DNA from: a virus
Lineage: Duplodnaviria > Heunggongvirae > Uroviricota > Caudoviricetes
Direction: 5' to 3' (one strand)
IMG/VR virus record: IMGVR_UViG_2737471992_000010
Location: 1 to 38,281 of that record
DNA length: 38,281 nucleotides
Below are positions 3,159 through 24,719 of the stretch, piece by piece. The notes beneath the pieces are model-generated. The model was not told where the DNA came from and searched no databases. It saw only the letters and a list, made by a program, of their open reading frames with translations. Each line of letters starts with the position of its first letter. Position 1 is the first letter of the stretch. The position numbers were made by a program, and so were the translations under genes.

Positions 3159-5621
3159 TCAATTCCCTGTTAATTGCAAAACTTGCTCTTCCAGCTTTTT
3201 AACCCTGCGTCTCATCATCGCAGATTCCAGAATCAGAGCCTCTTCATAACGGATACCGTAACATTCACCAGCCTCGACGGCTTCGCGTACCAGAACCTTT
3301 GTCTGTATAAGTGGGTAAACTCCTGCAGAATGCTCTTCTTCCGTCACATCCCTGTATTCTGCCGGGGTCTCATTCCACTTGTCATAACAGATAAATGCCA
3401 GTCGTGACACATCTATGCCTTCATTCTGAAATACACTGATAACATGCTGCGCAACTGCACCAAAGTGCCATCTTGCTCCGTCTTTACCTTTCACTTCGAT
3501 CCTGTCAAGGTACTGGTATGAAACCCATTCCACTCTTTCCCATGCGTCCAGTATTTTCTCATCAATAACCTCTGGAGCAGTCTTGAAACGCGCATCGGAC
3601 AGCACCGTAAACGCTGACTGGGTAAATCCCCCCGACCATGCACGACCAGCCAACCCAAGAGAATAAGTATTCGTTGTCGATGGTGTCATGGCTGAATCAG
3701 AAAACTGTATATATTCTGAATTTCCAGTAGATATTCGAATATTTCCATTTATTAGCGACATAGTGCCTTTAGTATTATCACTATTGAATAATTTCAATTG
3801 CGAACTTATACCGCCTCCCACAGCCAGAGATACATCGCCTTCAGCAAGCATTCTGAATTTATCTGCAGAAACAAGCGTCTGGTTAGCAAGGTTAAAATAT
3901 TTAACCCACCATTCAAAACGCCCTGACATAGTCCCAACGTACTGACCAAGCGCAGGGACGTGAACAACATTGCTATTTGTAGTGCCGTCTATACTGGAAA
4001 TACCAGTCACCGCTGATGCAGAACTCAGAATATTATTTCTGTCACCCGGATGTTTAATTTCAACAAAGTTCCTGATACACCCTTCCTCGAAGGTAACCAC
4101 GCCGGAAGAACTATACATGGGGAATATTGACGCATAATTACTGCGTGCAGCATCTAAGAAACGAATGGTTGTAGATGTCTGCAGATCTCCTGATTCATTT
4201 TTCCCATCACACCCAGTCATTAGAATATTACTGGCAATATTATTATTTCCCTGAACGGTGACTCCGTGCGCCTGCTTTGCGTCCGATTCAGAGTAATCAA
4301 CCAGCACATTCGAAATCAGGTTACCAGTCCCCTTGCCAACAACTACTGCGGCGTATTTTGGGTTGTTAGCCATTACACTGCTAATGATATTATTCGTTGG
4401 GGCAGTTTCCGTCTCAGTTCCATTGTAAACAACGTGCTGACACTCTTCACCAATAACATTGCTGACAATGTTATATTTTGCTGCTGTTTTAAGTTCCACT
4501 GCACCAAACTGAGGATAATTTCTGGCTATCACACCATCAATTAGCGTATTTTGCGATGAATCAAAAAGCACACAACCTGCTTTTTTATTATTTGCGAACC
4601 CTAAATACTCTCCTCTTATATCTCTAACAATGTAACCTGACGGAATACCATTATTCGGATAAGCGATCAAGCTAAATCCTGTTCCTCGCGTATTTGTAAA
4701 TCTGATATTTTTAACCGATACATCATGGCCACCTGAAAATGACACCTGGTGTCCCTGCACACTATCATCTGATTTATTTCCCATAATTGTTAGCGTACTA
4801 AGCATGCCACCATCGGGCATGTTAAAAACCAGATGATTACCATCTCTGTCATACTGTTTTATCGTTCCCCCACCTGTTCCGTACAAGCCACAACGTGAAA
4901 GAGAAACTAAAGATGTATTGAATACCCCTTCCGGAACAAAAACACTGCTAAACGAATGTAATGATTTTGTAAAAGCATCCTTGTTATCATTTAAGATTCC
5001 ATTTTGAGCTCCAAAATCCTTAATGCTGACACCATCACGCATCTTATCCTGGAACGTTCTGTATACCGCTCCAGAACCATACTGAATAAACCAACCAAAA
5101 CCACCAATAACTCCGGCGATTGCAGCATCGACATAATTACGCATTGAGCGATTATTTACAGCGTCCTGCTCAAGTGATGGATCGGCAAGGTTAGATATTC
5201 TGTTTTGCTTTGCATCGTAATATTTTGCAAGCAAAGATGGTTTCATCAATGCACGTCTGAACCACCCAAAACATCGCTGGATCAGCATCGTCAGGTAGTC
5301 AAATGCATCCTCATGAACTTCGGGGAAAAATTTTCCCTGATTGCGAAGATCAGTCTCCTGCACCACATCAAGCACACGCTCTATCGTGATTCGCCAGCCA
5401 GCAGCAAGCGGCGACGGAAGAACCACTGCACCGCCACTATAAGTTCCCGCCCCTGTTACCGTATAACCAGCATCCAGCACTAGTTTTGTAACGTTACCGT
5501 TAAGGTCAGACACCTGAACAACCAGGTCGGATTTTTTGAAAATACGGAAGGTATACGGAAATGATGTCGTAACGCCGTTACCTGTGTATTCGTTGTGGTC
5601 AACTTCGGTTGAGACCGTCAT
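3159..5621 (-). CDS. Tail fiber/tailspike: T7 gp17-like N-terminal adaptor, beta-helix (depolymerase-like) body, C-terminal self-cleaving intramolecular chaperone (peptidase S74-like)
   Basis: 820 aa; N-terminus EYTGNGVTTSFPYTFRIF...LVVQV resembles the T7 tail fibre N-terminal domain; central Gly/Asn/Ser-rich repeats typical of right-handed beta-helix; C-terminal segment with SDARFK motif and coiled-coil tail characteristic of the endosialidase-type chaperone domain. Confidence 0.85.
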   Translation of the reverse strand: MTVSTEVDHNEYTGNGVTTSFPYTFRIFKKSDLVVQVSDLNGNVTKLVLDAGYTVTGAGTYSGGAVVLPSPLAAGWRITIERVLDVVQETDLRNQGKFFPEVHEDAFDYLTMLIQRCFGWFRRALMKPSLLAKYYDAKQNRISNLADPSLEQDAVNNRSMRNYVDAAIAGVIGGFGWFIQYGSGAVYRTFQDKMRDGVSIKDFGAQNGILNDNKDAFTKSLHSFSSVFVPEGVFNTSLVSLSRCGLYGTGGGTIKQYDRDGNHLVFNMPDGGMLSTLTIMGNKSDDSVQGHQVSFSGGHDVSVKNIRFTNTRGTGFSLIAYPNNGIPSGYIVRDIRGEYLGFANNKKAGCVLFDSSQNTLIDGVIARNYPQFGAVELKTAAKYNIVSNVIGEECQHVVYNGTETETAPTNNIISSVMANNPKYAAVVVGKGTGNLISNVLVDYSESDAKQAHGVTVQGNNNIASNILMTGCDGKNESGDLQTSTTIRFLDAARSNYASIFPMYSSSGVVTFEEGCIRNFVEIKHPGDRNNILSSASAVTGISSIDGTTNSNVVHVPALGQYVGTMSGRFEWWVKYFNLANQTLVSADKFRMLAEGDVSLAVGGGISSQLKLFNSDNTKGTMSLINGNIRISTGNSEYIQFSDSAMTPSTTNTYSLGLAGRAWSGGFTQSAFTVLSDARFKTAPEVIDEKILDAWERVEWVSYQYLDRIEVKGKDGARWHFGAVAQHVISVFQNEGIDVSRLAFICYDKWNETPAEYRDVTEEEHSAGVYPLIQTKVLVREAVEAGECYGIRYEEALILESAMMRRRVKKLEEQVLQLTGN

Positions 5622-5724
5622 GTTAAATCTCCAGATAGTCGCAGCACCCGTTGCGCCGCATATCTGGTTATTCTATTACCTGAAAAACCATATATGGATA
5701 AAAAGACTATAAATACCAATAGAT

Positions 5725-5741
5725 ATTACCTTTCGGGTAAT
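5725..5741. promoter_or_regulatory. 17-bp palindromic operator-like site ATTACC-TTTCG-GGTAAT
   Basis: Perfect inverted repeat in the divergent region between the tail fiber start (5621) and the small antirepressor-like gene (5817). Confidence 0.6.
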
Positions 5742-5779
5742 TTGCAAAACGTGCTGGATAGCAAACAAATTATTTGTTA

Positions 5780-5795
5780 CTGTATAAACATACAG
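5780..5795. promoter_or_regulatory. LexA (SOS) box CTGT-N8-ACAG
   Basis: Sequence tacTGTATAAACATACAGtt: perfect CTGT / ACAG half-sites with an AT-rich 8-nt spacer, 22 nt upstream of the ATG at 5817 and overlapping a TATAAA -10-like hexamer. Confidence 0.65.
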
Positions 5796-5816
5796 TTATT
5801 GCATGGAGAAGATAAG

Positions 5817-6074
5817 ATGCAGCAGTATCACTATCCACTGGAAGACGGATTTACCGAAAGGATTCACACGCCGGGAGGCGTCAGGTCACTGGTGGAGGGA
5901 TCGCACTTGATGAAATTACTCCGGGATCTCGATAAGGATGGATTTAATGTCGATGGCCCACTTGCCGAACTGACTGCACTGATTAACTACGTCACCAGCT
6001 CACAGATGTCTATGCGGGATCTGCAAACACATCTCGACTATTGTGCCGAACAATTACGAAAACAAACCAGATAA
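5817..6074 (+). CDS. Small protein paralogous to the C-terminal domain of the antirepressor (candidate LexA-controlled antirepressor)
   Basis: 85 aa from the internal ATG with GGAGAA RBS; aligns with residues about 140-218 of the 6392..7048 product (PLEDGF.ERIHTPGGV..L.EGSHLM.LL..L...G..V.G..AELT....Y). The track ORF from 5694 is an upstream extension without RBS. Confidence 0.6.
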   Translation: MQQYHYPLEDGFTERIHTPGGVRSLVEGSHLMKLLRDLDKDGFNVDGPLAELTALINYVTSSQMSMRDLQTHLDYCAEQLRKQTR

Positions 6075-6104
6075 GGTTTGCAATTACCAAATGGAGTGCT
6101 TATA

Positions 6105-6121
6105 TTTACCTTTGCGGTAAA
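6105..6121. promoter_or_regulatory. 17-bp palindromic operator-like site TTTACC-TTTGC-GGTAAA
   Basis: Perfect inverted repeat, itself nested inside a longer inverted repeat GGAGTGC (6093-6099) / GCACTCC (6130-6136). Confidence 0.55.
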
Positions 6122-6211
6122 TTTACATCGCACTCCTCTTGTGCCATAGTAATCGGGCACTGGCAAAATCCAGTGCCGGGATTGGTCTCCCGGATTACTA
6201 AGTGGCGCATA

Positions 6212-6233
6212 CCACGCCAGACGTGGTTTTTTT
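6212..6233 (+). terminator. Weak terminator-like hairpin plus U-tract
   Basis: CCACG-CCAGA-CGTGG followed by seven T; lies downstream of GC-rich hairpins at 6156-6193. Confidence 0.35.
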
Positions 6234-6391
6234 ATGCGTATAGCACAGTCATGCCAGAATTATGGTGGGCTGAATGGGGGTCCGAAAGGACGCCGGTACC
6301 ACTTAGGCCGGTAAGACCAACTCCGTTCAGTTCACCACCATCTGATTGGTCTCAGCGGTGGTGATGTAATTCGCTAAGTGGAGACGCCATC

Positions 6392-7048
6392 ATGAACGCT
6401 CAACTCATCCCCGTATTCAACGGCACTATATCTAACGAAACAGCCCTACTTTGTAATGCCCGCGATCTGCACGCTTTTTTAGGTGTTAAAAAGGTGTTTG
6501 CAGCATGGATTACAAATCGCATATCAGAATACGAATTCATTGAAAATCAAGACTATATTTTGCTTTCCAATTTGGGAAAGCAAACATCTGGTAGAGGCGG
6601 CCACAACCGCAAAGAGTACCACCTCACCCTTGATACAGCCAAAGAGCTGGCGATGGTCGAGCGTAACGAAAAAGGTCGTCAGGTGCGACGCTACTTCATT
6701 GAATGCGAGAAACGTTTAAGACAACAAGAAACAAAAGTGGAGAAGGTCTTGTCAGGCTTCATGCCCGCCATTATGGAGGCGATCAAGCTGGAAGACAAAA
6801 AAGAATACAGCGCCCCACTGAAGCCCGGCTACCGCAGCCTGATTCATTCTCCGTCTGGTGTTCTCGGCCTGACGGAGAACTCACTGCTGATGAATCTGCT
6901 GAACAAGTTACAGGAAGACGGGCACGATGTATCGGGCGCGGCAGCGGAGCTGACCACCATGTTCTGCTACATCGTCGGTGTGAGCAAATGCCTGCGTGAT
7001 ATCCAGACCCACGCGGAGTACATCAACGACAAGGCAGGGTTCTTCTGA
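6392..7048 (+). CDS. Antirepressor (AntA-type N-terminal domain plus C-terminal domain)
   Basis: 218 aa; N-terminal region (VFNGT...[29 protein letters not shown]) resembles AntA/AntB antirepressor domains; GGAG RBS 10 nt upstream. Confidence 0.75.
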
Positions 7049-7119
7049 CGGGCGGTGGCACAGGGATGTGCCTTTAAATAATTCTGTACAGATTGCAGAC
7101 TGTGGGTGAATAGCGTACT

Positions 7120-7136
7120 ATTACCTTAAAGGTAAA
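7120..7136. promoter_or_regulatory. 17-bp palindromic operator-like site ATTACC-TTAAA-GGTAAA abutting the RBS of the 7148 gene
   Basis: Inverted repeat whose right edge overlaps the AGGAGG RBS (7136-7141) of the ORF starting at 7148. Confidence 0.55.
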
Positions 7137-7147
7137 GGAGGCGCGAT

Positions 7148-7312
7148 ATGACAGCGTTGAAAAATCGTACTCAGCACAATGAACAAGCAAAGCAATGCTG
7201 GGATGTCATTGGAAAAGTTATGCTTGGCCGCGCAAGCAAAGAGCGCGACAAGGATATGGTTTACCAGACAGGAACATCTTTCAGCGACTTCAAGGCGGCA
7301 TTTCGCTCCAAA
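7148..7312 (+). CDS. Small basic protein (55 aa), unknown function; not in the supplied ORF track
   Basis: ATG at 7148 preceded by AGGAGG at 6-nt spacing; translation MTALKNRTQHNEQAKQCWDVIGKVMLGRASKERDKDMVYQTGTSFSDFKAAFRSK; stop TAG at 7310-7312. Confidence 0.45.
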
Positions 7313-7335
7313 TAGAAGCACATCAGGAGTTTTCC

Positions 7336-7776
7336 TTGAAGTTTAACATTAGAATATCTAATAGTTTTCTACATGGGGAAAGCAACACCCCTTTCGCTGT
7401 AGACGGACCTTTCCTTACTGATGATGAAATAAAAATCATACAAAGTTTTTTAGAGGATGTTGCCAATGGAAGGGCGCTTGTTGGAAAAAACAAGCCCTCG
7501 TGGGTTGATGATAACCATGATAAAATTCCCGGCTCAGACAATTATGAGCAAGAGAATTATTGGCATTATCATTGTGGGCCAACATGGTATCCAAACACAT
7601 TTAAGAATTATACCATTAACTTAAATTTCAACCCTGGCGGAAGGCATTCTAATGAATGCATTCATTATGCAAAAAATGATAATGAAATTGTCATTGTTGG
7701 ATTTTCAAGAGAACACATACCTTTCCTTTCATCAGATGGAAACAACAATCCGCTTTTTAATGATGAAGAAGAATAG
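7336..7776 (+). CDS. AT-rich accessory gene of unknown function, about 146 aa, probable TTG start
   Basis: Long ORF with visibly lower GC than its surroundings; no in-frame ATG after 7195; AGGAG RBS (7325-7329) 6 nt before TTG 7336; acidic C-terminus NDEEE; followed by a strong terminator. Confidence 0.5.
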   Translation: MKFNIRISNSFLHGESNTPFAVDGPFLTDDEIKIIQSFLEDVANGRALVGKNKPSWVDDNHDKIPGSDNYEQENYWHYHCGPTWYPNTFKNYTINLNFNPGGRHSNECIHYAKNDNEIVIVGFSREHIPFLSSDGNNNPLFNDEEE

Positions 7777-7796
7777 CCCGCGCTGCGGGCTTTTTT
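7776..7796 (+). terminator. Rho-independent terminator
   Basis: GCCCGC-GCT-GCGGGC stem-loop immediately followed by TTTTTT. Confidence 0.65.
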
Positions 7797-8553: not shown

Positions 8554-11028
8554 TTATTGCGGAGTGACATCCTGAGGTCGCCACCAGTATGTCTGGTTAA
8601 ACTCTTTCTTCGAACGTTGCTCCATTTTACGCAAATAGCCTGGTGAAAAATACTCCTGCATCTGGTTAAAGATCATGTGATCAAGAGCTGCCTTCAAGTA
8701 CCAGAGATTCGCACCTGGCATCAGCCCTTTCCCAAGTTTCACCAGATCACCACCAGTCTGCTCGTTCTTCCCTTCCACAGCATTTAATGGTATGCCCTGA
8801 GCTATCTTCACTACGTCATCAACCAGGCCAGCTACCGGGCCAAGCATCGACGCCAGCGCGCCGCTTCCGTACCTAGTGTGATCTGACAATAAAAAGTCAC
8901 CGTAAAGGCCAAGACCACCACCTTTCAGTAGAGCACCAAGCCAAAATTTAGCAGCATCTTCTCCTGTCATCTCGCGAGGATTACGACCAGACGCAAGGTC
9001 GTTAAGTTGCTGCGACAAAGCGCCAAGAATGGTCGTACTGGCAATAAACGTCGCAATATATGCCGCACGCCCACCAGCAGACGGCATACCCATAGCGCGT
9101 GACCAGTGACGCATAACCACCGAGATAGGGAACGATTTAAACAGGAAAACACTTCTCGTTAATTCACCTTTCCATGTTCCACGCTGAATACCAGAACCGG
9201 TTATCAGTTGCTCACGTGCTCCCGGTGTAATAACAGCCATATCAACTTCTTCAGTTACGGCACCGAGCAGTTTACGCATTGCCTCAAATTTCACGCGTTC
9301 AGGCTCACCAAGATGTTTAACTGCTGAATCAGGGATACGCATAATGCTTTCCGGTGTCAGCATCGTATTATTACCGTTCCCCCAGTCCTCCTGTTGCGCC
9401 AGCTTCCATACGCTCCAGTCTGTGTCAGTAATCCCTTTGCTTTTCAGGATACGAAAATCAGAGTCATCGAGGCTACGAAGGTCTGGTGTCCGTGACACTA
9501 CTTCTCCCAGGCTTCCCATCATGGTTACGCCATAGGCGCGCTTGTGCGCATCTGACCATGCTGTAAGCCCACTGGCACGCATTACCGCCGTTGCTGCCCA
9601 ACGAGACACTGACGGCCCCATATTATCCATCGCCCAGCGGTTAACGCTGCCAAGTAGAGATTCCATTGCCAGACCAGCGCGGCGCGCCCGCGCAAGTTCT
9701 GTACGGTTCGTTGGGTCCATAGCTTCAAGCTGGTTGCGGAATAACTGGTTCATTGGAAGGTTGGTCACCTTCGCAGACAGATACATGGTTCCAAGATCAG
9801 AGAACGATGATAGCAACGCGGATCCGAGTCTGCTGGCAACCAGCCAGTTGCGGATATTGTCAGACCATCGCGCGATGTGCGGATTCGCTACAGGCTGTGT
9901 CTTTCCGGAAATAAAGTTGTACAGATTCTCTGTGTTGTTCGCCAGCCGCTCGACTTTACCGGTTTTACTCGGGTTAGCTGTTGCCGTTTCTGCCTTCACC
10001 TGATCAAGAAGAGAGCGGAAAACATGATCGGGGTTTGGGCCATATGTTTCCACCAGTGCAATATCTTTACTGATACCTTCCAGGTGACCGACCATGATTT
10101 CCCATAGAGAGCGATCGCCATAAAGTTGCTGATATTGCAGATATGAATCTGCATCTTTGAAATGTATCTGTCGTGATGCATTACCACGGTTAGCACGTGC
10201 GCCGGAAATTCGCATGCCGGTATCAGTAAGCTTATTCAGCCCACCAGTGGCGATTGTGTTATAAGCTTCTCCAAGAAATGCAGACAACTCGGCATCGTTC
10301 ATCAGTTGTCCATCGGCTCGGATATAATATTTGCGATCCAGCTTACCTATAACATCGCTAACCCACTTATCCTTTGATACCGCCCCAACCTTTTCCATAG
10401 AATGATGTTGAGGGATCCCCCAGTTTTCGAGATAGCCAATGTCCCCACCAGCATCATTAAACCGGCGGCGCAGTAGCTCTGTCACTTCTCTCCACGCCTT
10501 AGCACCTTTTCTTGCTTTAGCATTGCCAGTATTTTGCCCCCGCATTTCATATACCAGGTCACGTACGCCCGCTTCATCTTCAAACAGACCAAAAAAGCGA
10601 GGATCAACTGCTTCGAATGCCTCCTGCAATTGACTCAATGCATAATCACGGGTGGCTTTTGTTCTGGATTCAACAGAGAGGAAATTCGATTTACCGTCTG
10701 CATTAAAAGCAATAGTACGGTTAAGAGCGCCAAGTTTCCCATCAGCCCCTTGATAGCTATTGATAAATTTATCCAATCTCTGACGTGCGGCTATAGTGAG
10801 GGCCACACGACGTTTCTTTAATGCCGCTTCTCGCTGTAATTCTTCAGATGCCAATTGTGCTGCACGATATAGCCGCTCTGATTCGGAAAGTTGTCTCCAC
10901 GACATCGGGTCATCACGAGCAATAGAGCGCATATTTCGATAAATGCGGTCTTCAATGTTCTGTATTTCTCGCGCCGTTAACGTGCGCTGCGCCGCCTGCT
11001 GGACCGCTTGTATACATTCCTGTCTCAT
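8554..11028 (-). CDS. Large internal virion/ejection protein (T7 gp16-position)
   Basis: 824 aa ORF in an overlapping chain of virion genes downstream of the tail tubular genes. Confidence 0.65.
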   Translation of the reverse strand: MRQECIQAVQQAAQRTLTAREIQNIEDRIYRNMRSIARDDPMSWRQLSESERLYRAAQLASEELQREAALKKRRVALTIAARQRLDKFINSYQGADGKLGALNRTIAFNADGKSNFLSVESRTKATRDYALSQLQEAFEAVDPRFFGLFEDEAGVRDLVYEMRGQNTGNAKARKGAKAWREVTELLRRRFNDAGGDIGYLENWGIPQHHSMEKVGAVSKDKWVSDVIGKLDRKYYIRADGQLMNDAELSAFLGEAYNTIATGGLNKLTDTGMRISGARANRGNASRQIHFKDADSYLQYQQLYGDRSLWEIMVGHLEGISKDIALVETYGPNPDHVFRSLLDQVKAETATANPSKTGKVERLANNTENLYNFISGKTQPVANPHIARWSDNIRNWLVASRLGSALLSSFSDLGTMYLSAKVTNLPMNQLFRNQLEAMDPTNRTELARARRAGLAMESLLGSVNRWAMDNMGPSVSRWAATAVMRASGLTAWSDAHKRAYGVTMMGSLGEVVSRTPDLRSLDDSDFRILKSKGITDTDWSVWKLAQQEDWGNGNNTMLTPESIMRIPDSAVKHLGEPERVKFEAMRKLLGAVTEEVDMAVITPGAREQLITGSGIQRGTWKGELTRSVFLFKSFPISVVMRHWSRAMGMPSAGGRAAYIATFIASTTILGALSQQLNDLASGRNPREMTGEDAAKFWLGALLKGGGLGLYGDFLLSDHTRYGSGALASMLGPVAGLVDDVVKIAQGIPLNAVEGKNEQTGGDLVKLGKGLMPGANLWYLKAALDHMIFNQMQEYFSPGYLRKMEQRSKKEFNQTYWWRPQDVTPQ

Positions 11029-11033
11029 TTAAT

Positions 11034-12836
11034 TTAACCTCTCAAGAAACACGCCACAGCGACATCAAACAGGCTGGAATCCTGTATTGCCTGCTCACTT
11101 TCCCTGTTCGCTTCATCCAGTACTTCACGCGCGCTGCGCGATTGTGGATTACCATCATCATCCAGCACGGTGATTATCATGTCAGGTGATTCAAGCAGCG
11201 AGTCTTCAGCTATGCGCAGATCAATATCTCCTGCCTGATCCGCCATCATTTTTTGTTCTGCCTGTTGCAATATTTTATCAGGCTCAAAAGGAGCTACTTC
11301 GTCTGGCGTCCTGACCTCTGCTGTTTTATAGAATGAAACAGCCTGAGCATTAAGTTCACTTTCTGCCTGCTGTCTCCGAGCCAGTTCTGCTCGAGCTTCA
11401 AAAAACTGACCGCCAGGCTCATGCGGTGCCAACGCGTTACGAGAAAATTCCAGGCGTTCTTGTGCCTGCCGGATTCGTTGGTCAATATCGCGAAGTCTGG
11501 CCTGTTTATCTGATCGAGCACGAGACAAAGCTTTACCGCTACCGGTTGGCTCTTCTGCAAGAATTTGTGCACGCTGTTCAGTGAGATTTTCAATAATTCG
11601 TTGGCTATTAGCGATTTCAGACTGGTAAACCTGTCTATCTCCACGCGGCAAAAGCTGCGCGGCCTGTTCTTCAAGCAACCGATTTTCTATAGCGCGCGCC
11701 GTTACTCCATCATCTACAGATGACAGAGCCTCATTAACTGCCTGAGACAGCAGACTCTTGCGCCCAGGAATTTCACTGAAAGATGCAGACTCAACAATGC
11801 TGGCAACGTCTACAGGTCTCCCCTGGCTAACATCAGACATAGCTTTTCGCAGAGCCTGAATGTGAGAATTGCGCGAAAGCACGTTGATCGGCACGCCGGG
11901 AGAAATATCAATTTCAGCATGATGAGCGGCATTCGCCGCCAGTGCAGCATCGACATCAACTGGTGAAAAATTGGGGGTGCTTGTAGCCTCACCGCGAGAG
12001 TTAATAAATCTGCCGACACCACCAAACGCCACCCCAAGAACAGCATCAATAGCAATTGCCTGTCGATCCAACACATCATACTGGTTAGCCATTTCGCTAT
12101 AGCCACCATCACGAAGCGTTTTTGCAGTAAGCCCACGCTGTGCCATACCGAACGCAATATTTGTACCTGCGGCATAGGCAATATCTGGCGTTGCACGTAC
12201 TGCTGTTGCTGCGGCGCGTCGCACTGAACTTTCACCCGTCCGCGCAAGCTGAGCCGCCACACCTTCCGCCAGCGCACCACCAGCACGTAACCCGAGACTC
12301 ATAGGGATCAGTGTTCCGGCACCAGCAGTAATACCCTGCACTAATCCCGCTTCCTGCGCCGTCCTGAAATCAACACCCTGTGCTGTCAGCCGTTCAAACT
12401 CAGAAAAACCCTGTAGCGAAGTTACCGCCGCAGCACCTCCGACCGGACCACCGAGCGTTGTACCGATAACAGCCTGCCCGCCCATATCGAACAACCCATA
12501 AAGAACCTGCCCGGCGGTTCCGGTTGTCGCGGCATCAGGCGTCAGCCGCTTAACCTGCTGCTCTGCTAGTTTTCTCTGCTCGGCAATGTATGAAACTGAA
12601 GTGTCATTGAGCGAGGTGTTTTCGTTAACAAACTGAGCAATCGGGGATACGATTTTATCCATCCCTGCCCAGAGCAACTGATCTGGCTTTGCCACCAGCC
12701 CGGAGTACAAACCAGACAATGCCGCTCCTACAGCATTGTCGAAAAAACCAACATCGCTGTTAAAGCCAACTGGATTTGATGCTGCTTCGTCAAGCTGCTG
12801 ATTCTGGTTTACTGGATTAAGGCCAAAGTAACTCAT
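11034..12836 (-). CDS. Internal virion/ejection protein
   Basis: 600 aa, Ala/Gly-rich; ATGA start/stop overlap with the upstream gene. Confidence 0.6.
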   Translation of the reverse strand: MSYFGLNPVNQNQQLDEAASNPVGFNSDVGFFDNAVGAALSGLYSGLVAKPDQLLWAGMDKIVSPIAQFVNENTSLNDTSVSYIAEQRKLAEQQVKRLTPDAATTGTAGQVLYGLFDMGGQAVIGTTLGGPVGGAAAVTSLQGFSEFERLTAQGVDFRTAQEAGLVQGITAGAGTLIPMSLGLRAGGALAEGVAAQLARTGESSVRRAAATAVRATPDIAYAAGTNIAFGMAQRGLTAKTLRDGGYSEMANQYDVLDRQAIAIDAVLGVAFGGVGRFINSRGEATSTPNFSPVDVDAALAANAAHHAEIDISPGVPINVLSRNSHIQALRKAMSDVSQGRPVDVASIVESASFSEIPGRKSLLSQAVNEALSSVDDGVTARAIENRLLEEQAAQLLPRGDRQVYQSEIANSQRIIENLTEQRAQILAEEPTGSGKALSRARSDKQARLRDIDQRIRQAQERLEFSRNALAPHEPGGQFFEARAELARRQQAESELNAQAVSFYKTAEVRTPDEVAPFEPDKILQQAEQKMMADQAGDIDLRIAEDSLLESPDMIITVLDDDGNPQSRSAREVLDEANRESEQAIQDSSLFDVAVACFLRG

Positions 12837-15346
12837 TGCGGAATATCTCCGGAGAATCTCTGACGCTTCTGTGTCAGATCAAGAACAACGGGAGAACCAT
12901 CATCTTTTAGCAGATAACCAGTACCAAGTTTCACCAGGTACTGACTATCGCCGTAACTTTGCAAACCATACTGACCAGGCGGTGTTTTTATCCCTGTGCC
13001 AACAACTTGTTCATTCCAAGCCTGATTAACCTGCTTATCGAATTGCTCTGCAGACATTCCCCACGGCAAAAGAACATTCCCCATTCCGTTATAGTCATGC
13101 ACGCCACCTGTAGCTACGTTAACAGCCTGTTTCCAGATATCATTGTCAATTTCGCCTGATACCACGCCTTTTTTCGCCATCACACCAGCGTAATAGTCCT
13201 TTGCGATCTCGAATGCCATTGATGCCCCCTGAGCATCACCAGCAAATGCATCCTTCACCATGTCAGAAAACTCAAGGCGAAGATCAGCATCTTTAGGCAT
13301 CGGAATACCTTTCGCGTCATCAGTACCTTTACGAGCCGCCGCGCCAGCAAGAATTGTCTGCGCAGCGGTTTCTGGAGACACGGAAACATCCGGATTAAAC
13401 CAGTTTTTTTCTGCCAAAATACCACCTGGCTTATCCATCAGTATCCCGGCAACGGCAGCAGATGGAGCGTTGGCACTGATCTGCTGTAGTGCTGACATAT
13501 ACACCTGCCCACCACCAGTGCTCTGCCTGATGGTATCGAGATATGCTGCCTGTTGGGAAACGGGCGCATCACGAAAGAAAACACCGATCTGATTGGCCTC
13601 GTCTTTGGAAAAGAACGTCAGTGGAGTGCCATATGACTTAGCAAGGTCACTGACCTGAGCAGCACGCAAGGCAACGCTCTGTCCAAAGTTATCCTTATTG
13701 CTCATGTCGATAGGCTTTGCCTGTCCGGCGGCAAGAGAGAACTGCACAGGATCCGACTGCCGCTGCTTTATCACCTGATTTGCAGCCGAAACAACGTTGT
13801 CATAAAGAGCTGCGCGTGCCGCATACCCCTCCCCTGTCTCACCAGTATCCGGGCGTAATTGCTCAACATATGCTGTAATGCTGCTTGTCGGCATGTTGCG
13901 GAAAGAGCCTATATACTGTCCGGCGATCTGCGTATTTCTGAACTCGGTATATCGCAGGTTTCCTTCTCTGACGCCATAAGCTGCAATAAAATCAGCCTCA
14001 CCAGGTGGATTAGGAAATTCAACGCCACGCATATACGCAGCCGTCGCATCGCGAACCTGGCTGTCAATCATCGTTTTATATTCAGCCTGCTGCTGCCGAC
14101 GCAGTTGATCCGCCTGTCGCATATAACTTGCCTGCGCCTCAGGAGATGCCGCATCGAATGCTGCATTACCAGTATAGCGTTTGGTGTTGGTTGGAATTGT
14201 TGATAAACCAAGTGCTGCACTGACACCAGCAGTTAACTGCTGATCACTGTATGGCTGGCTACCGTTCTCATGATGGATAATGGCTGCACAAAGCGCCTTC
14301 AGGGTATCAGGATTTGATGCATCGAGAGGATCATCAGCAGAAACGCCAAGTTGTTCGCACACCGCTTTGATATACGACATAGTGTCATTTTTATCAGCAG
14401 GCGGTGCCCAGCGATTAATTATCTCGCTGACGGTATCAATACCCTGCCTCTGATACGACATCAGGTTCCGCCCTAATGCACGAATCCCGTGTTCAGGTGT
14501 TTCGAATTTAGCAAATCGACCATCATCACCGGTCTGGCCTACCCACGGATTAGTTTTGCTGTATTCGAGATTTCCTGGGTTATTGTTGCGTATGCCACGG
14601 GCACGCTCGGAAGAGTCACTATCTGCTACAGCACGGCGAGCTCCAGCAGCAGTATCACTTAACTCGCCATTACTTTGGATGAATGCGGTCGCATTGTTTG
14701 CCGACCACTGGGACAATGCAGCATCAGCAACCTTCTCTTTAAACTCGATTTTCTTGGCCTGGATTTGCTCGTTGCTCCAGCCATGTGCAACACCGTACTC
14801 CTCAATTTGCTGGAAAGTTTGCTTGTTAGCCAATACGTATGCGGCGTTGTCGCCATACAATGCTGCGGCATTTTTACCATTGTTCAGCAGTGTCGCCTGA
14901 AACTGGCCTTCTTCGTAGGCATTAATTTGCCCTATCTCGTGTCGCCCGGCCTGCGTAGTGAACTGAATGCGCTGCTGCTGCGCCTGCTGCATGAAAGCAT
15001 TACGAGCCTGTTCATCCGGCAGAGACATAGCCAGTTGTTCGACCTGAGCATCAAACTGCTGCGTATACTCATGGCCTTTTCCAATAGCATTTTTCCCTTT
15101 CAGGTTAAGCAATCCTGTTTCAGGATTATTCAGCAGATCGCTGCTTATCTGACTGAGGTTAAGAGATGCCTCCTGAGCCAGAGCGATATTGGCACGCTGT
15201 TTTGCCTGCCCCAAAACATCAATTGCCTCTGTCCCTGCCCGAACAAAAGCATCACCAATACCTTGCTGAGAAAACGTCTGCAAGCCTGCTGACTGAACTC
15301 CACGACTCTCAACCTGACGTCCGGATACTGTTGGTACGACTGGCAT
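12833..15346 (-). CDS. Internal virion protein with putative peptidoglycan-hydrolase motif (T7 gp15/gp16-like role)
   Basis: Start reassigned to the ATG at 15346 (GGAGG RBS, TAATG overlap with the upstream stop); contains RGIRNNNPGNLEY...NPWVG, a motif I associate with phage virion-borne lysozyme domains. Confidence 0.6.
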   Translation of the reverse strand: MPVVPTVSGRQVESRGVQSAGLQTFSQQGIGDAFVRAGTEAIDVLGQAKQRANIALAQEASLNLSQISSDLLNNPETGLLNLKGKNAIGKGHEYTQQFDAQVEQLAMSLPDEQARNAFMQQAQQQRIQFTTQAGRHEIGQINAYEEGQFQATLLNNGKNAAALYGDNAAYVLANKQTFQQIEEYGVAHGWSNEQIQAKKIEFKEKVADAALSQWSANNATAFIQSNGELSDTAAGARRAVADSDSSERARGIRNNNPGNLEYSKTNPWVGQTGDDGRFAKFETPEHGIRALGRNLMSYQRQGIDTVSEIINRWAPPADKNDTMSYIKAVCEQLGVSADDPLDASNPDTLKALCAAIIHHENGSQPYSDQQLTAGVSAALGLSTIPTNTKRYTGNAAFDAASPEAQASYMRQADQLRRQQQAEYKTMIDSQVRDATAAYMRGVEFPNPPGEADFIAAYGVREGNLRYTEFRNTQIAGQYIGSFRNMPTSSITAYVEQLRPDTGETGEGYAARAALYDNVVSAANQVIKQRQSDPVQFSLAAGQAKPIDMSNKDNFGQSVALRAAQVSDLAKSYGTPLTFFSKDEANQIGVFFRDAPVSQQAAYLDTIRQSTGGGQVYMSALQQISANAPSAAVAGILMDKPGGILAEKNWFNPDVSVSPETAAQTILAGAAARKGTDDAKGIPMPKDADLRLEFSDMVKDAFAGDAQGASMAFEIAKDYYAGVMAKKGVVSGEIDNDIWKQAVNVATGGVHDYNGMGNVLLPWGMSAEQFDKQVNQAWNEQVVGTGIKTPPGQYGLQSYGDSQYLVKLGTGYLLKDDGSPVVLDLTQKRQRFSGDIPQ

Positions 15347-15891
15347 TATAATCCTCCGGGTAATCTGGTTCCTGCTGCTGCCCCGATTGGCGCAGGAGTG
15401 CTTTGAGTAAACGGACTCCACGTCCCACCAAACATCTGGTACGCACCGTATGCCTTCAGAGGCGCAGTGAGCAATGTTGTTGCTGCTCCCACATTCCCCT
15501 GTTTACGGGCTGAACTGGCTTCTGCTTTATAGTTGGCAGCCTGAACCTGATAACCGTAAGCCTCGCGTTGCGCGTTATTCACCGTCGTCAGCGAATCAAG
15601 AGCGCCAAACTGGGCAGTGTCGCCAAATATATCCAGCGCGTTACCGGTAGATAAATCGGCGCCGGTCGCCCCCATTGTCGCCGCTTGAGTACCAAGCCGC
15701 TGTCGGGTCTCTCTGCGCCGTTGCTCAGCTTCAGCGTTACCTCTGTTTATTGCATCATTTGCCTGAGCAGTGGCTATATCTGCGTTCGCTTCTGCAACCT
15801 TCGAGGCATACTTTCCCTGTTGGTACTGGGTGTATGCCTGAATGCCACTCATGGCGAGCATTGCGCCACCAGCAATAACCGGATCGCACAT
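15346..15891 (-). CDS. Internal virion protein (gp14-position)
   Basis: 181 aa Ala/Gly/Gln-rich protein; start overlaps the upstream stop. Confidence 0.55.
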   Translation of the reverse strand: MCDPVIAGGAMLAMSGIQAYTQYQQGKYASKVAEANADIATAQANDAINRGNAEAEQRRRETRQRLGTQAATMGATGADLSTGNALDIFGDTAQFGALDSLTTVNNAQREAYGYQVQAANYKAEASSARKQGNVGAATTLLTAPLKAYGAYQMFGGTWSPFTQSTPAPIGAAAGTRLPGGL

Positions 15892-16355
15892 TATTTTCTC
15901 TCCATGTGAAATCTGTGGAAATTAAGACCAAGAGCACCATAAGGCGCGGCTTCTTCAAGCCTGAATCCAAGCCAGTGCAGCCATGCTTTGGCAACATGGT
16001 TTCGCTCGTCGACGTAGTTTTCCAGGCGCGGATAAACTGCCAGCATCTGCTGCAATACAGGTCGGCAGTGGCGAAGAAATGTCTTCTGATATTTTTCAAT
16101 ACGGCTGGTTCCGACCAGCCAGGGTGTACCATTGCCACCGATCATTGACGCCGGAGATACACCAAACATGGTTACCAGTTCTCCGTTCGCGAACCCTGAC
16201 CAGGCCATAGTCGCAGTGCGAAGACCAACACGCAGCGCATCTTCGGTAGTCATCAGCGATACCGCATACAGTTCGTCAATATCAGCCTGACGAACATCCG
16301 GCAAAATCATCTGAAGATGCTCTTCGGTGGCGGGAATAATTCGAACATCGATCAT
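15891..16355 (-). CDS. Virion-associated protein (gp13-position)
   Basis: 154 aa ORF translationally coupled to the tail tubular B gene. Confidence 0.5.
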   Translation of the reverse strand: MIDVRIIPATEEHLQMILPDVRQADIDELYAVSLMTTEDALRVGLRTATMAWSGFANGELVTMFGVSPASMIGGNGTPWLVGTSRIEKYQKTFLRHCRPVLQQMLAVYPRLENYVDERNHVAKAWLHWLGFRLEEAAPYGALGLNFHRFHMERK

Positions 16356-18826
16356 CAGAATCCCCCAACAGTAAGACGAGGAATAACGGCAAGAACAGAC
16401 AGCGGCAACGGGTCAAGCTGACGGATTCTTACACGTCCGTTTTTGCCCCAGTTACTGTCCAGTTTCACTTCTACTTTTCCGGTAGCGTCATCAACAGGAT
16501 CATCGTAGAACTCGAATTCACGCTGTGGATATTCGTACCATTTACCGCCGGGCGTAGTCGCCCAGATGCCGCGACTGGCATTCACAACCAGAGTAACGGA
16601 GGGGATCACCTGTTTTTTGTCCAGCAGCGTTTCCTGTCCGTTAATGTTGATATCCAGTGTTTCGAATTCAGCAGTTATTGGCAGACCGATGTGCACTACA
16701 GCCCCCGGAGATTCCAGCGTGACGGCACCTCCGGAAACCACTTTCTGTGGCTCCACGTTCGCATCAGAGAGAATGTTTACGGTCTGGCCTTCAAGATGAG
16801 ACAGGCCTCCAAATGTCCGGCGCGCCATCTGCCAGTTCGTGGTGGCCACATTCCTGAGGGATGGCGGGACGTTCCTGTTAGCACGAACCACTACAGCGGT
16901 ATTGCTGGTTACAGAAATAATGTCGCAACGTAATTCTTTTGACACCTCATCACCAGTATCAGGATCAGTTCCGGTATAAGGGAACTGTAGTTGCGCGCCG
17001 ACATCACTACTGGTGAAGTACGCACCACCAGAAACACTGATTGTATATTCCGCGCGGTAATCCCATTCACCAGAACCACCAGTGATGGTCATCGTTCTGT
17101 CAGACGTATTTCTTCCATCATAGCTAAGGCCAGAATCAACAAAGAAAGCATCTTCATCGCTGGTAAATAAACGGCTGGACAGTCGCTCGATGTATCTCAC
17201 TGTTTGCCCGTTAACGGTTCGGTTAACGACGAAATACACCGCATCTTCATTTCCTTCGCTGATACTGCATGTGCTTTCATATTTTCCGGTACTGGATTGT
17301 GGTGCCCATGCAAAAACCTGCTGATCACGCAAATAGGTCATCACCAGTAATTTACCGTCATCACGAATGCAGAAGGCGCTGGAGTAAGGGACAATAGAGA
17401 AGCACCAGTCAACAATACTGTGCTTCTGAAAAAGATGATTGGCAAGGATGGTCAGGTCGTTCCCCTGATAGCCGTCAACATCGAATGAGTAGGCCAGATC
17501 ACGGACAACGCTGCCTTTCTCCTGGACGAACAGAGCAATATTCGCCACGGCAATTGGCGGGACGTTGCTTGAGCCATTTGATCCCTGAGAGCTGAATGCA
17601 AATGATGATGGGGTTAACACTTTGTTCTGGTCGCCGGTGATGACGTACTCACCTCCGGAAGTCAGCGCCACCAGAGAACCAACATCAATCAGGTGGCGGA
17701 TCTCATTAACCTGACGCCCGGCATAGGTGTAGATAATTCTGTCGTCATCCTGCGTAGGATTGCTTTTGCCAAAATCCTTATAATCCCCGGTACGGCTGGC
17801 CCAGATAGTCTGAGGGAACGCAGTCGATGCGGCGAAGTAAAGACGTTGTTGATAATAAACAACAGTGCCAGGATAACCATTAACACTGTTCCAGGCATAT
17901 TTAGCCCATTTATAGCTGGCATTATCCTCGCCAACTACCTGCGAAGGGATATAGGAAATCACCTCGGCAGTTGCAGTAGTTCCATTTGCAGCAGAGATAC
18001 GGGCAATGCCAAAACCACTGTGCAGATACTCCCACTCAATGCCGGTATCATCATCACCGGATCCGCCCCAGCCATCCCATGATGTGCCTTCTGTATGCGA
18101 AGGGCGCAAAGTGCCTGTTTTGCCTACTGTAACGGCGCGATAGTAGTTACTGTCTGCACGGCGAATATCGCCAATTGACGTACTCTTACTGGTTTCCCAT
18201 ACCGGCACAGAATCCACTGCAGGCTGTTCCAGATAGAACAATTTGCCTACCTGCTCCGCGCCAAAAATAGAGGCGCTTGCCGTTAACGTAATTGTCCCGG
18301 TGCTGGCGCTGGCATAAACCGTCACTGACTCGTCAATATTGATATCTTCAAATGGTCCGTTCTTCGTTACCACATCAACCAGTTGCCAGTTGTCATGCGC
18401 ATAGCGACGCAACTCTTTCGGCGGGTATGCCGGATGAACAAGCGTAAGCACGTCGGCGCTTTGCGTGAATTTAATTCGGAACAGATCGGCTTCAGTATAT
18501 GGCGTGGAAATTTCATAAATAACATTGCTGCTGTTCAGCACCAACGCACCATCTTTGATAACGCGCATGTACTGGTGTCCGAACTCCAGAGCATAAGTCT
18601 GAACCGTCGAGAACTGGAACGGGATCAGGCGGCATTTCCGATTTGGGTATTTGGCGGCACCGACAAAACGCGTACCAGGTCGATTCTCAACTCCGCCATA
18701 CTGCCGCACGATAAAGTTATCGCACTTGCGCAATGCCACCTGGTACTTCGCCATGTCAATACGACCGTACAACGACGGTCCAATCTCACCACCGGCAAAG
18801 CTGGGCTGGATCCAACTGATAGCCAT
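16355..18826 (-). CDS. Tail tubular protein B-like
   Basis: 823 aa directly after a roughly 200 aa tail tubular A-like gene, matching T7 gp11-gp12 order and size. Confidence 0.65.
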   Translation of the reverse strand: MAISWIQPSFAGGEIGPSLYGRIDMAKYQVALRKCDNFIVRQYGGVENRPGTRFVGAAKYPNRKCRLIPFQFSTVQTYALEFGHQYMRVIKDGALVLNSSNVIYEISTPYTEADLFRIKFTQSADVLTLVHPAYPPKELRRYAHDNWQLVDVVTKNGPFEDINIDESVTVYASASTGTITLTASASIFGAEQVGKLFYLEQPAVDSVPVWETSKSTSIGDIRRADSNYYRAVTVGKTGTLRPSHTEGTSWDGWGGSGDDDTGIEWEYLHSGFGIARISAANGTTATAEVISYIPSQVVGEDNASYKWAKYAWNSVNGYPGTVVYYQQRLYFAASTAFPQTIWASRTGDYKDFGKSNPTQDDDRIIYTYAGRQVNEIRHLIDVGSLVALTSGGEYVITGDQNKVLTPSSFAFSSQGSNGSSNVPPIAVANIALFVQEKGSVVRDLAYSFDVDGYQGNDLTILANHLFQKHSIVDWCFSIVPYSSAFCIRDDGKLLVMTYLRDQQVFAWAPQSSTGKYESTCSISEGNEDAVYFVVNRTVNGQTVRYIERLSSRLFTSDEDAFFVDSGLSYDGRNTSDRTMTITGGSGEWDYRAEYTISVSGGAYFTSSDVGAQLQFPYTGTDPDTGDEVSKELRCDIISVTSNTAVVVRANRNVPPSLRNVATTNWQMARRTFGGLSHLEGQTVNILSDANVEPQKVVSGGAVTLESPGAVVHIGLPITAEFETLDININGQETLLDKKQVIPSVTLVVNASRGIWATTPGGKWYEYPQREFEFYDDPVDDATGKVEVKLDSNWGKNGRVRIRQLDPLPLSVLAVIPRLTVGGF

Positions 18827-24642: not shown

Positions 24643-24719
24643 GTGGCATTAGCTCAGTTGGACAGAGCAACCGCCTTCTAAGCGGTTGGTCGCAGGTTCG
24701 AATCCTGCATGCCACGCCA
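24643..24719 (+). tRNA. tRNA-Arg, anticodon UCU (reads AGA)
   Basis: Hand-folded cloverleaf: 7-bp acceptor stem GTGGCAT/ATGCCAC, D arm GCTC...GAGC, anticodon stem ACCGC/GCGGT with loop CTTCTAA, T arm GCAGG-TTCGAAT-CCTGC, discriminator G and encoded CCA. Confidence 0.9.

Follow-up and report, generated by a model that had tools for sequence, protein, structure and literature searches.

Which bacterial surface does the product of a long gene near the start of this phage sequence recognize, and what does it do there? The gene lies on the minus strand at positions 3159 to 5621 of the window, by which we mean the whole stretch of 38,281 nucleotides (nt) of Caudoviricetes DNA held as IMG/VR record IMGVR_UViG_2737471992_000010. 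The original prediction, made from the letters alone, described a tail fiber with a T7 gp17-type adaptor, a β-helix body and a self-cleaving C-terminal chaperone. We consider it highly probable that the gene encodes a homotrimeric K5 heparosan lyase tailspike, equipped with a self-cleaving chaperone and belonging to a phiV10/epsilon15-like prophage. This reading is based on homology, conserved residues, fold, genomic context and an association with K5 hosts, and from these we infer lyase activity, autocleavage, the trimeric state and the identity of the protein with the eliminase ElmA.

The open reading frame (ORF) starts with ATG and runs through 820 codons without interruption.

3159..5621, minus strand: tailspike coding sequence, 820 amino acids (aa), 89.7-kDa precursor, stop codon at 3159-3161 (ORF list)
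5629..5632, minus strand: Shine-Dalgarno sequence GGAG, 7 nt upstream of the ATG at 5621 (read from the sequence)

Its first residues, M1-T2-V3, are unchanged throughout 34 homologues. The protein is identical to WP_000218900.1, which is encoded in Escherichia coli chromosomes and is annotated merely as “tail fiber domain-containing protein”; no member name in the WP_000218900.1 cluster reads ElmA or eliminase, and NCBIfam holds no model for the protein. A PHROG search placed it in tail-spike families (E 1e-223). It consists of an anchor of ~195 aa, a body of 479 aa and a chaperone of 146 aa, and of the predicted precursor mass the mature chain accounts for 72.8 kDa and the chaperone for 16.9 kDa.

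The body, aa 196-674, is the part that identifies the protein.

4047..5036, minus strand: predicted right-handed parallel β-helix lyase domain, aa 196 to ~525 (AlphaFold2 [AF2], Foldseek, phmmer)
3600..4046, minus strand: predicted C-terminal trimerization stalk, an intertwined, triple-β-helix region, aa ~526-674 (likeness to KflA, AF2)
4425..4496, minus strand: proposed lyase catalytic residues E376 (4494-4496), K378 (4488-4490) and Y399 (4425-4427) (alignment to KflA)

Searching the PDB sequences with phmmer aligned spike aa 199-675 without a gap to KflA (2x3h; E 5.8e-185) and aa 192-814 to the E1004 phage tailspike (9vvr; E 1.3e-225). When the spike was aligned to native KflA, taken as the translation of the deposited kflA gene (Y10025.2), identity was 58.3% over 600 aligned residues. 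It peaks at 69% in aa 301-450 and is lowest, at 40%, in aa 196-300, and the stalk is 61-63% identical to the matching part of KflA, which is included in the crystallized chain. E376, K378 and Y399 align exactly with E206, K208 and Y229 of KflA (native numbering). Glu206, Lys208 and Tyr229 were reportedly proposed by Thompson et al. in 2010 as the syn-elimination site of that enzyme. Among 15 lyase-module homologues with identity down to 40%, the glutamate and the lysine are kept in all 15 and the tyrosine in 14, and besides these three residues 107 positions are invariant among the lyase modules of K5-specific phages.

An AF2 monomer model of the spike, built on 24 homologues, contains a confident β-helix of consecutive short strands (predicted local distance difference test [pLDDT] 80-97 for aa 200-520). 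Its best Foldseek match is 2x3h_A (E 3.4e-43, 60% identity, TMt 0.73), followed by other tailspike β-helices and then by chaperone structures; the Pfam Beta_helix match is weak (E 7e-4). Over aa 564-676 the pLDDT falls below 50, as expected, since this region folds only as a trimer and a monomer model cannot represent a trimeric stalk. Taken together, the homology to KflA, the conservation of the E, K and Y residues and the modeled fold argue that the body is a K5 (heparosan) lyase module, that is, an eliminase and not a glycoside hydrolase. The β-helix foreseen for the whole central region was found on structure prediction, with a K5 lyase as its nearest relative, from aa 196 to ~525; by sequence and model, the last ~150 residues of the body (aa ~526-674) appear not to be β-helix but a trimer-intertwined stalk folded by the chaperone. 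The Gly/Asn/Ser/Thr-rich repeats reported for the same region are real as an enrichment, the G+N+S+T share being 38.8% in aa 196-674 versus 26.7% in aa 1-195 and 15.1% in aa 675-820. They are not repeats of sequence: Tandem Repeats Finder detected none in the body and, in the spike gene, returned only a trivial 20-nt array at 5088-5107, in the anchor-coding part. The central “repeats” are structural β-helix coils only.

The C-terminal 146 residues have the features of a domain that folds the stalk and is then removed.

3162..3599, minus strand: intramolecular chaperone domain (Peptidase_S74), aa 675-820, 16.9 kDa (Pfam, PDB, AF2, Foldseek)
3582..3599, minus strand: putative autocleavage motif S675-D-A-R-F-K680 with a Ser-Lys dyad (alignment to endoNF, GA-1 gp12 and KflA)
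3165-3248, minus strand: predicted terminal helix, aa 792-819, 28 residues (AF2, pLDDT 72-84)

PF13884 (Peptidase_S74) matches aa 675-735 with 51.3 bits versus a gathering cut-off of 22 (E 1.4e-13). The PDB matches are 3gud (GA-1 gp12; E 7e-21), 3gw6 (endoNF; E 1.4e-18) and 4uw8 (T5 pb1; E 1.4e-5), and in Foldseek the domain matches 3gud with a TMt of 0.74. In endoNF 3gw6, S675 corresponds to A911 (the S911A mutant) and K680 to K916, so that an S-x4-K stands at the start of the domain; S675 also aligns with the first residue of the crystallized GA-1 gp12 chaperone, and the deposited 2x3h chain stops at KflA S505, its exact counterpart. Both residues of the dyad are invariant in 24 of 24 homologues, some of which have unrelated central domains, and the terminal helix aligns with those of 3gw6, 3gud and 9vvr. 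The SDARFK motif, the S74-type chaperone and the coiled-coil tail named in the original prediction are all recognizable here.

In such proteins the Ser-Lys dyad fires only after correct folding of the trimeric stalk, and a terminal trimeric coiled coil drives assembly, a mechanism documented for endoNF, T5 pb1 and MyRF (PMC8326128, PMC4690869); “K5 lyases (e.g., ElmA)” are named among the four phage families with this domain (PMC8326128). On the strength of these alignments, the C-terminal domain of the spike is most probably a Peptidase_S74 intramolecular chaperone with a Ser675/Lys680 dyad, and by analogy with its homologues the spike would cleave itself and form a trimer.

The N-terminal part is longer than the ~120 aa allotted to it earlier, and its relation to T7 is one of fold.

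5037..5621, minus strand: predicted particle-binding anchor, aa 1-195, with a β-sandwich at aa 9-82 (5376-5597) and then a helical trimer neck at aa 103-195

The AF2 model of aa 1-196 shows a confident β-sandwich (pLDDT 85-92 for aa 9-82) followed by helices. The top 20 Foldseek matches are all N-termini of podovirus fibers and spikes, the T7 entries among them at E 1e-4 to 7e-3, and in a same-fold comparison the anchor was found to share the fold of the T7 gp17 N-terminus. The Pfam family Phage_T7_tail (PF03906; gathering score 25.2 bits) scores below its threshold: the full-length protein reaches 12.8 bits, and aa 1-196 taken separately reach 18.2 bits. The match covers aa 135-161 alone (profile positions 123-149), and a similar partial, weak match occurs in 33 of 34 homologues. 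Since hhalign of the anchor profile with a PF03906-positive T7-type spike of a Kayfunavirus gave no N-terminal match (probability 0.2%), the T7 link holds at the level of fold only. By sequence, the closest solved relative is Dpo31 of Carin-1 (E 6.5e-30, or 1.5e-40 with a profile). A tblastn search found 63-70% aa identity over aa 1-166 to the spike N-termini of VB_ST_E15, SPN1S, TL-2011b and O157 typing phage 10 and weaker matches in Pseudomonas AF, BPP-1-like phages and pelagiphages; some phage records label anchors of this kind “eliminase”. The anchor thus appears, from model and alignments, to have the fold of T7 gp17 without being a member of PF03906, and to belong to the epsilon15/phiV10 (Uetakevirus) sequence lineage. 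Its job is presumably that of the T7 gp17 N-terminus.

The following sequence of events can be proposed. The terminal coiled coil of the C-terminal 146 residues would nucleate trimerization, and these residues would fold the stalk (aa ~526-674); autoproteolysis catalyzed by Ser675/Lys680 would then release the chaperone, leaving a mature spike of ~73 kDa and a fragment of ~17 kDa. The β-sandwich and helical neck (aa 1-195) would fix the spike to the tail hub, and the β-helix would bind heparosan and cleave it by β-elimination, allowing the virion to tunnel through the capsule to the outer membrane.

In E. coli chromosomes the WP_000218900.1 gene lies within a prophage adjoining yfgI. This prophage encodes a portal, a capsid protein, a Bbp16-type cement protein, a gp10 staple, a T7 gp14-family core protein and an SLT transglycosylase. 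The 19-kb structural module of the window is ~98% identical in nucleotide sequence to phiV10, O157 typing phages 9 and 10, vB_EcoP_ZX5 and phiv142-3. A lysis cassette of two holins, a GH19 endolysin and a DUF2514 spanin follows directly downstream of the spike, and repressor, replication and recombination genes occupy the remainder of the window. With this gene content, the prophage looks complete up to the window edge. The spike can accordingly be placed, from its genomic setting, in what is most likely a temperate phiV10/epsilon15-like podovirus (Uetakevirus) integrated beside yfgI in E. coli. We also observed that the spike anchor is only ~68% identical in aa sequence to that of O157 typing phage 10, compared with ~98% nucleotide identity for the structural module; divergence is thus far greater in the anchor than in the tail to which it binds.

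The distribution of the spike modules was surveyed in 5,426 complete E. coli genomes. The 5′ part of the gene alone is shared by 493 of them, and in the best of these cases nt 1-615, at 91-95% identity, are joined to endosialidase, GH28-like or SGNH modules. The lyase module is present in 68 genomes, always as a single copy and with at least 99.7% identity. At 44-57% identity, it also stands behind at least five other N-termini in other proteins, chiefly of lytic phages: carriers include Kagunavirus (778 aa), Kayfunavirus (843 aa), Vectrevirus (632 aa), phages of ~73 kb (784 aa) and one protein of 1,012 aa. In an O2:K1:H7 strain, the yfgI site is occupied by a sibling prophage (NZ_CP126940.1, 1472816-1501430) with the same gene order, down to a divergent gene cluster described below. 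Its spike (locus 14001-17120) is a 1,039-aa endosialidase of which the first ~205 aa are shared, at 93.5% nucleotide identity. The GC content is 41-44% along the spike gene versus 50-52% in the remainder of the prophage, ~8-10 points lower. This low GC content and the occurrence of the same lyase module behind other N-termini point to a foreign origin of the cassette. The spike is, judging by these comparisons, a probable mosaic: an anchor peculiar to the prophage family continues, from a junction at aa ~195-205, into a cassette of K5 lyase plus chaperone that is also in circulation among lytic K5 phages. The temperate K1/K5 prophage pair mirrors the lytic trio K1E/K1-5/K5.

The surroundings of the gene bear on whether it still serves a phage. 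They include the following features.

5694-6074, plus strand: 126-aa ORF of unknown function, first gene of the divergent cluster
6392-7048, plus strand: AntA/AntB antirepressor, divergent cluster
7195-7776, plus strand: 193-aa ORF of unknown function, last gene of the divergent cluster
7775-7791: terminator-like hairpin, bidirectional, at the end of the divergent cluster
24643-24719, plus strand: tRNA-Arg (anticodon TCT), flanked by the portal and terminase regions and encoded on the other strand than the structural genes

The three-gene cluster (5694-7776, plus strand) lies upstream of the spike, so that the spike gene and the lysis cassette stand apart from the rest of the tail genes. In their C-terminal halves, the 126-aa ORF product and the antirepressor are 45% identical (E 9e-21). 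The gap between the start codon of the spike and the divergent ORF at 5694 measures just 72 nt (5622-5693). A scan for the sigma-70 consensus around the spike scored no better than shuffled sequence and yielded no convincing candidate in this gap. Transcripts of the spike and lysis genes may arise by read-through, antisense to the divergent cluster, or may start at an unrecognized late promoter. A tRNA-Arg (TCT) is likewise annotated in phiV10-like phage records. On the minus strand at 8554-15421, the gp14-family core protein is followed by three large proteins of 862, 600 and 824 aa, none of which has a Pfam match. Their counterparts in the prophage of strain 4/0, which is similar in other respects, have 873, 565 and 849 aa, and the putative ejection or internal proteins are therefore mosaic among carriers of an identical spike.

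One may ask whether the gene is instead a domesticated remnant with which the bacterium trims or sheds its own K5 capsule, giving rise to the low-molecular-weight heparosan in cultures. ElmA was reportedly discovered by Legoux in 1996 as a lyase activity of K5 cultures, which we count in favor of this idea. The same can be said of the near invariance of the gene in the 68 genomes, of its separation from the other tail genes by the divergent cluster, and of the listing of the enzyme as prophage-borne (“ElmA, prophage, E. coli K5”; PMC3594737). However, the cluster and the gene order recur in the sibling K1 prophage, and the phiV10-like genome is apparently complete, with intact ORFs for terminase, portal, capsid, core, lysis, repressor, replication and recombination. 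An intact tail-anchor domain would be pointless in a host enzyme, and spontaneous induction explains the culture activity equally well. Domestication is therefore quite unlikely, although it and a role as phage spike are not mutually exclusive.

The assignment as a K5-directed phage spike is consistent with the capsule genes of the hosts. Lysogen 4/0 has a complete K5 locus (kpsFEDUCS-kfiDCBA-kpsTM). Across the genome sample kfiC is present in 269 genomes, and a chimeric query of lyase plus kfiC matched 301, so that kfiC occurs in 36 of the 68 lyase carriers. This corresponds to 53% of carriers versus 4.3% of noncarriers (233 of 5,358), with an odds ratio of 24.7 and a Fisher p of 7e-30, a statistic that ignores clonal relatedness and is inflated by clonality. 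The earlier expectation of a polysaccharide-degrading, receptor-binding protein that determines host range is borne out by this association and by the homology to KflA, and these suggest the narrower description of a K5 heparosan lyase.

Several points weigh against this description. Identity to KflA is just 58%, falling to 40% in aa 196-300, which leaves room for a difference in fine specificity. Of the 68 lysogens, 32 have no kfiC, and the association statistic is inflated by clonality, as noted. The catalytic roles of KflA E206, K208 and Y229 are those reportedly proposed by Thompson et al., and the equation with ElmA draws on the reported features of that protein (820 aa, chromosomal in K5 strains) and, as circumstantial evidence, on the “eliminase” labels of related anchors. 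Lastly, endoNF and T5 pb1 have a folding-sensor arginine 14 residues before the scissile serine (R897 and R1250, respectively), and no conserved counterpart at a fixed offset before S675 was found among the homologues. R660, 15 residues upstream of S675, is variable among them, and a structural equivalent of the sensor arginine needs a trimer model.

The modest identity and the kfiC-negative lysogens would also fit a spike of the same architecture that degrades or binds another polysaccharide, such as the capsular material of non-K5 lysogens or some other polymer that contains GlcA, and a distant fold relative in phage ES17 has been reported to bind heparan sulfate and not to act as a capsule lyase (PMC7885116). 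Against this stand the proposed catalytic E, K and Y and the 107 further positions invariant across K5-specific phage lyase modules, together with the 25-fold enrichment in kfiC-positive genomes. The kfiC-negative lysogen that was examined, AR_0055, also speaks for a later switch of capsule and not for a different target. When the capsule loci were compared (NZ_CP021935.1, 1385125-1403771, versus NZ_CP023849.1, 3435298-3452863), the pheV island flank and several kps proteins of AR_0055 were identical to those of 4/0, and only kps region 2 with its neighboring genes was replaced, by a set comprising DUF6270, a glycosyltransferase, wecB, a wecC pseudogene and CgeB. Replacement of region 2 in an otherwise identical island indicates a capsule switch in a lineage that appears to have retained its K5-specific prophage, and explains at least one kfiC-negative carrier. 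A substrate other than heparosan is thus very unlikely.

The loss or replacement of the K5 locus in about half of the carriers is the only mildly unexpected observation. It would be tempting to suppose that carriage of a K5-lyase prophage itself selects for capsule switching, either because leaky lyase expression strips the lysogen's own capsule or because virions released by kin kill nonimmune K5 siblings; we regard this as quite unlikely. If true, the spike gene would record the ancestral capsule type and drive K-antigen turnover in lineages such as ST131.

It is extremely unlikely that the C-terminal domain is retained in the mature spike as a noncleaving S74-like domain or receptor-binding tip: some S74-containing fibers have degenerate motifs, G replaces D at position 676 in 2 of 24 homologues and the sensor arginine is not conserved in position, but Ser675 and Lys680 are intact and invariant, the closest crystallized homologue was solved as a chain stopping at the equivalent serine, and cleavage is documented for endoNF, T5 pb1, GA-1 gp12 and Dpo31 D4.

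As a K5 lyase spike, the protein would determine the host range of a common E. coli prophage, and its annotation as a K5 heparosan lyase would make capsule tropism readable from genomes. K5 lyases are used for heparan sulfate domain analysis and for sizing heparosan for bioengineered heparin, and they are candidate anticapsule therapeutics against K5 uropathogens. Cassette swapping is visible at a single chromosomal site, where one and the same anchor is joined to a K5 lyase in K5 strains and to an endosialidase in a K1 strain.

Among known systems, KflA of coliphage K5A/K1-5 (2x3h, Y10025.2) is the nearest. Like the spike, it combines a β-helix, an intertwined stalk and an S74 chaperone, gapless up to the cleavage serine, and the two share the E-x-K and Y catalytic positions and the S-D-A-R-x-K motif. 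KflA differs in its length of 632 aa and in its N-terminus, a short peptide for docking on the SP6-type adaptor gp37 of lytic Zindervirus/Vectrevirus, whereas the spike, which is encoded in a temperate prophage, starts with a 195-aa epsilon15-type anchor and carries a 17-residue insertion in its chaperone. ElmA was described by Legoux et al. in 1996, reportedly as an 820-aa chromosomal N-acetyl-heparosan lyase (eliminase) of E. coli K5, and the spike is very probably the same protein or an allelic form. EndoNF of phage K1F (3gw6) and the GA-1 gp12 chaperone (3gud) share the Ser-Lys dyad, the terminal coiled coil and triple-β-helix folding followed by self-cleavage; endoNF differs in its sialidase β-propeller body and polysialic acid substrate, and GA-1 gp12 is an unrelated appendage. 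Dpo31 of the Cobetia podovirus Carin-1 (8ck1, 28lx) follows the same four-part plan, with a virion-bound β-sandwich (D1), a helical coiled coil (D2), an enzyme (D3) and a cleaved C-terminal domain (D4) (PMC13317679), but its enzymatic domain and host polysaccharide are unrelated. The spikes of epsilon15 (gp20), phiV10, SPN1S and O157 typing phage 10 belong to the same anchor family, and the virion chassis is like that of phiV10, but the receptor modules of these phages target O-antigens (Salmonella O3,10; E. coli O157) and not a group 2 capsule. The T7 gp17 N-terminal domain (PF03906; 7boz, 7ey9) is only 15% identical to the anchor, which scores below the Pfam gathering threshold, and the phage of the spike is not an Autographivirus. 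What the original prediction missed is that this is a prophage gene for a protein of an already known type. The spike is a known KflA/ElmA-type K5 lyase that leaves current understanding unchanged, and its architecture, its chaperone and the exchange of K1 and K5 spike modules are textbook for capsule-specific coliphages.

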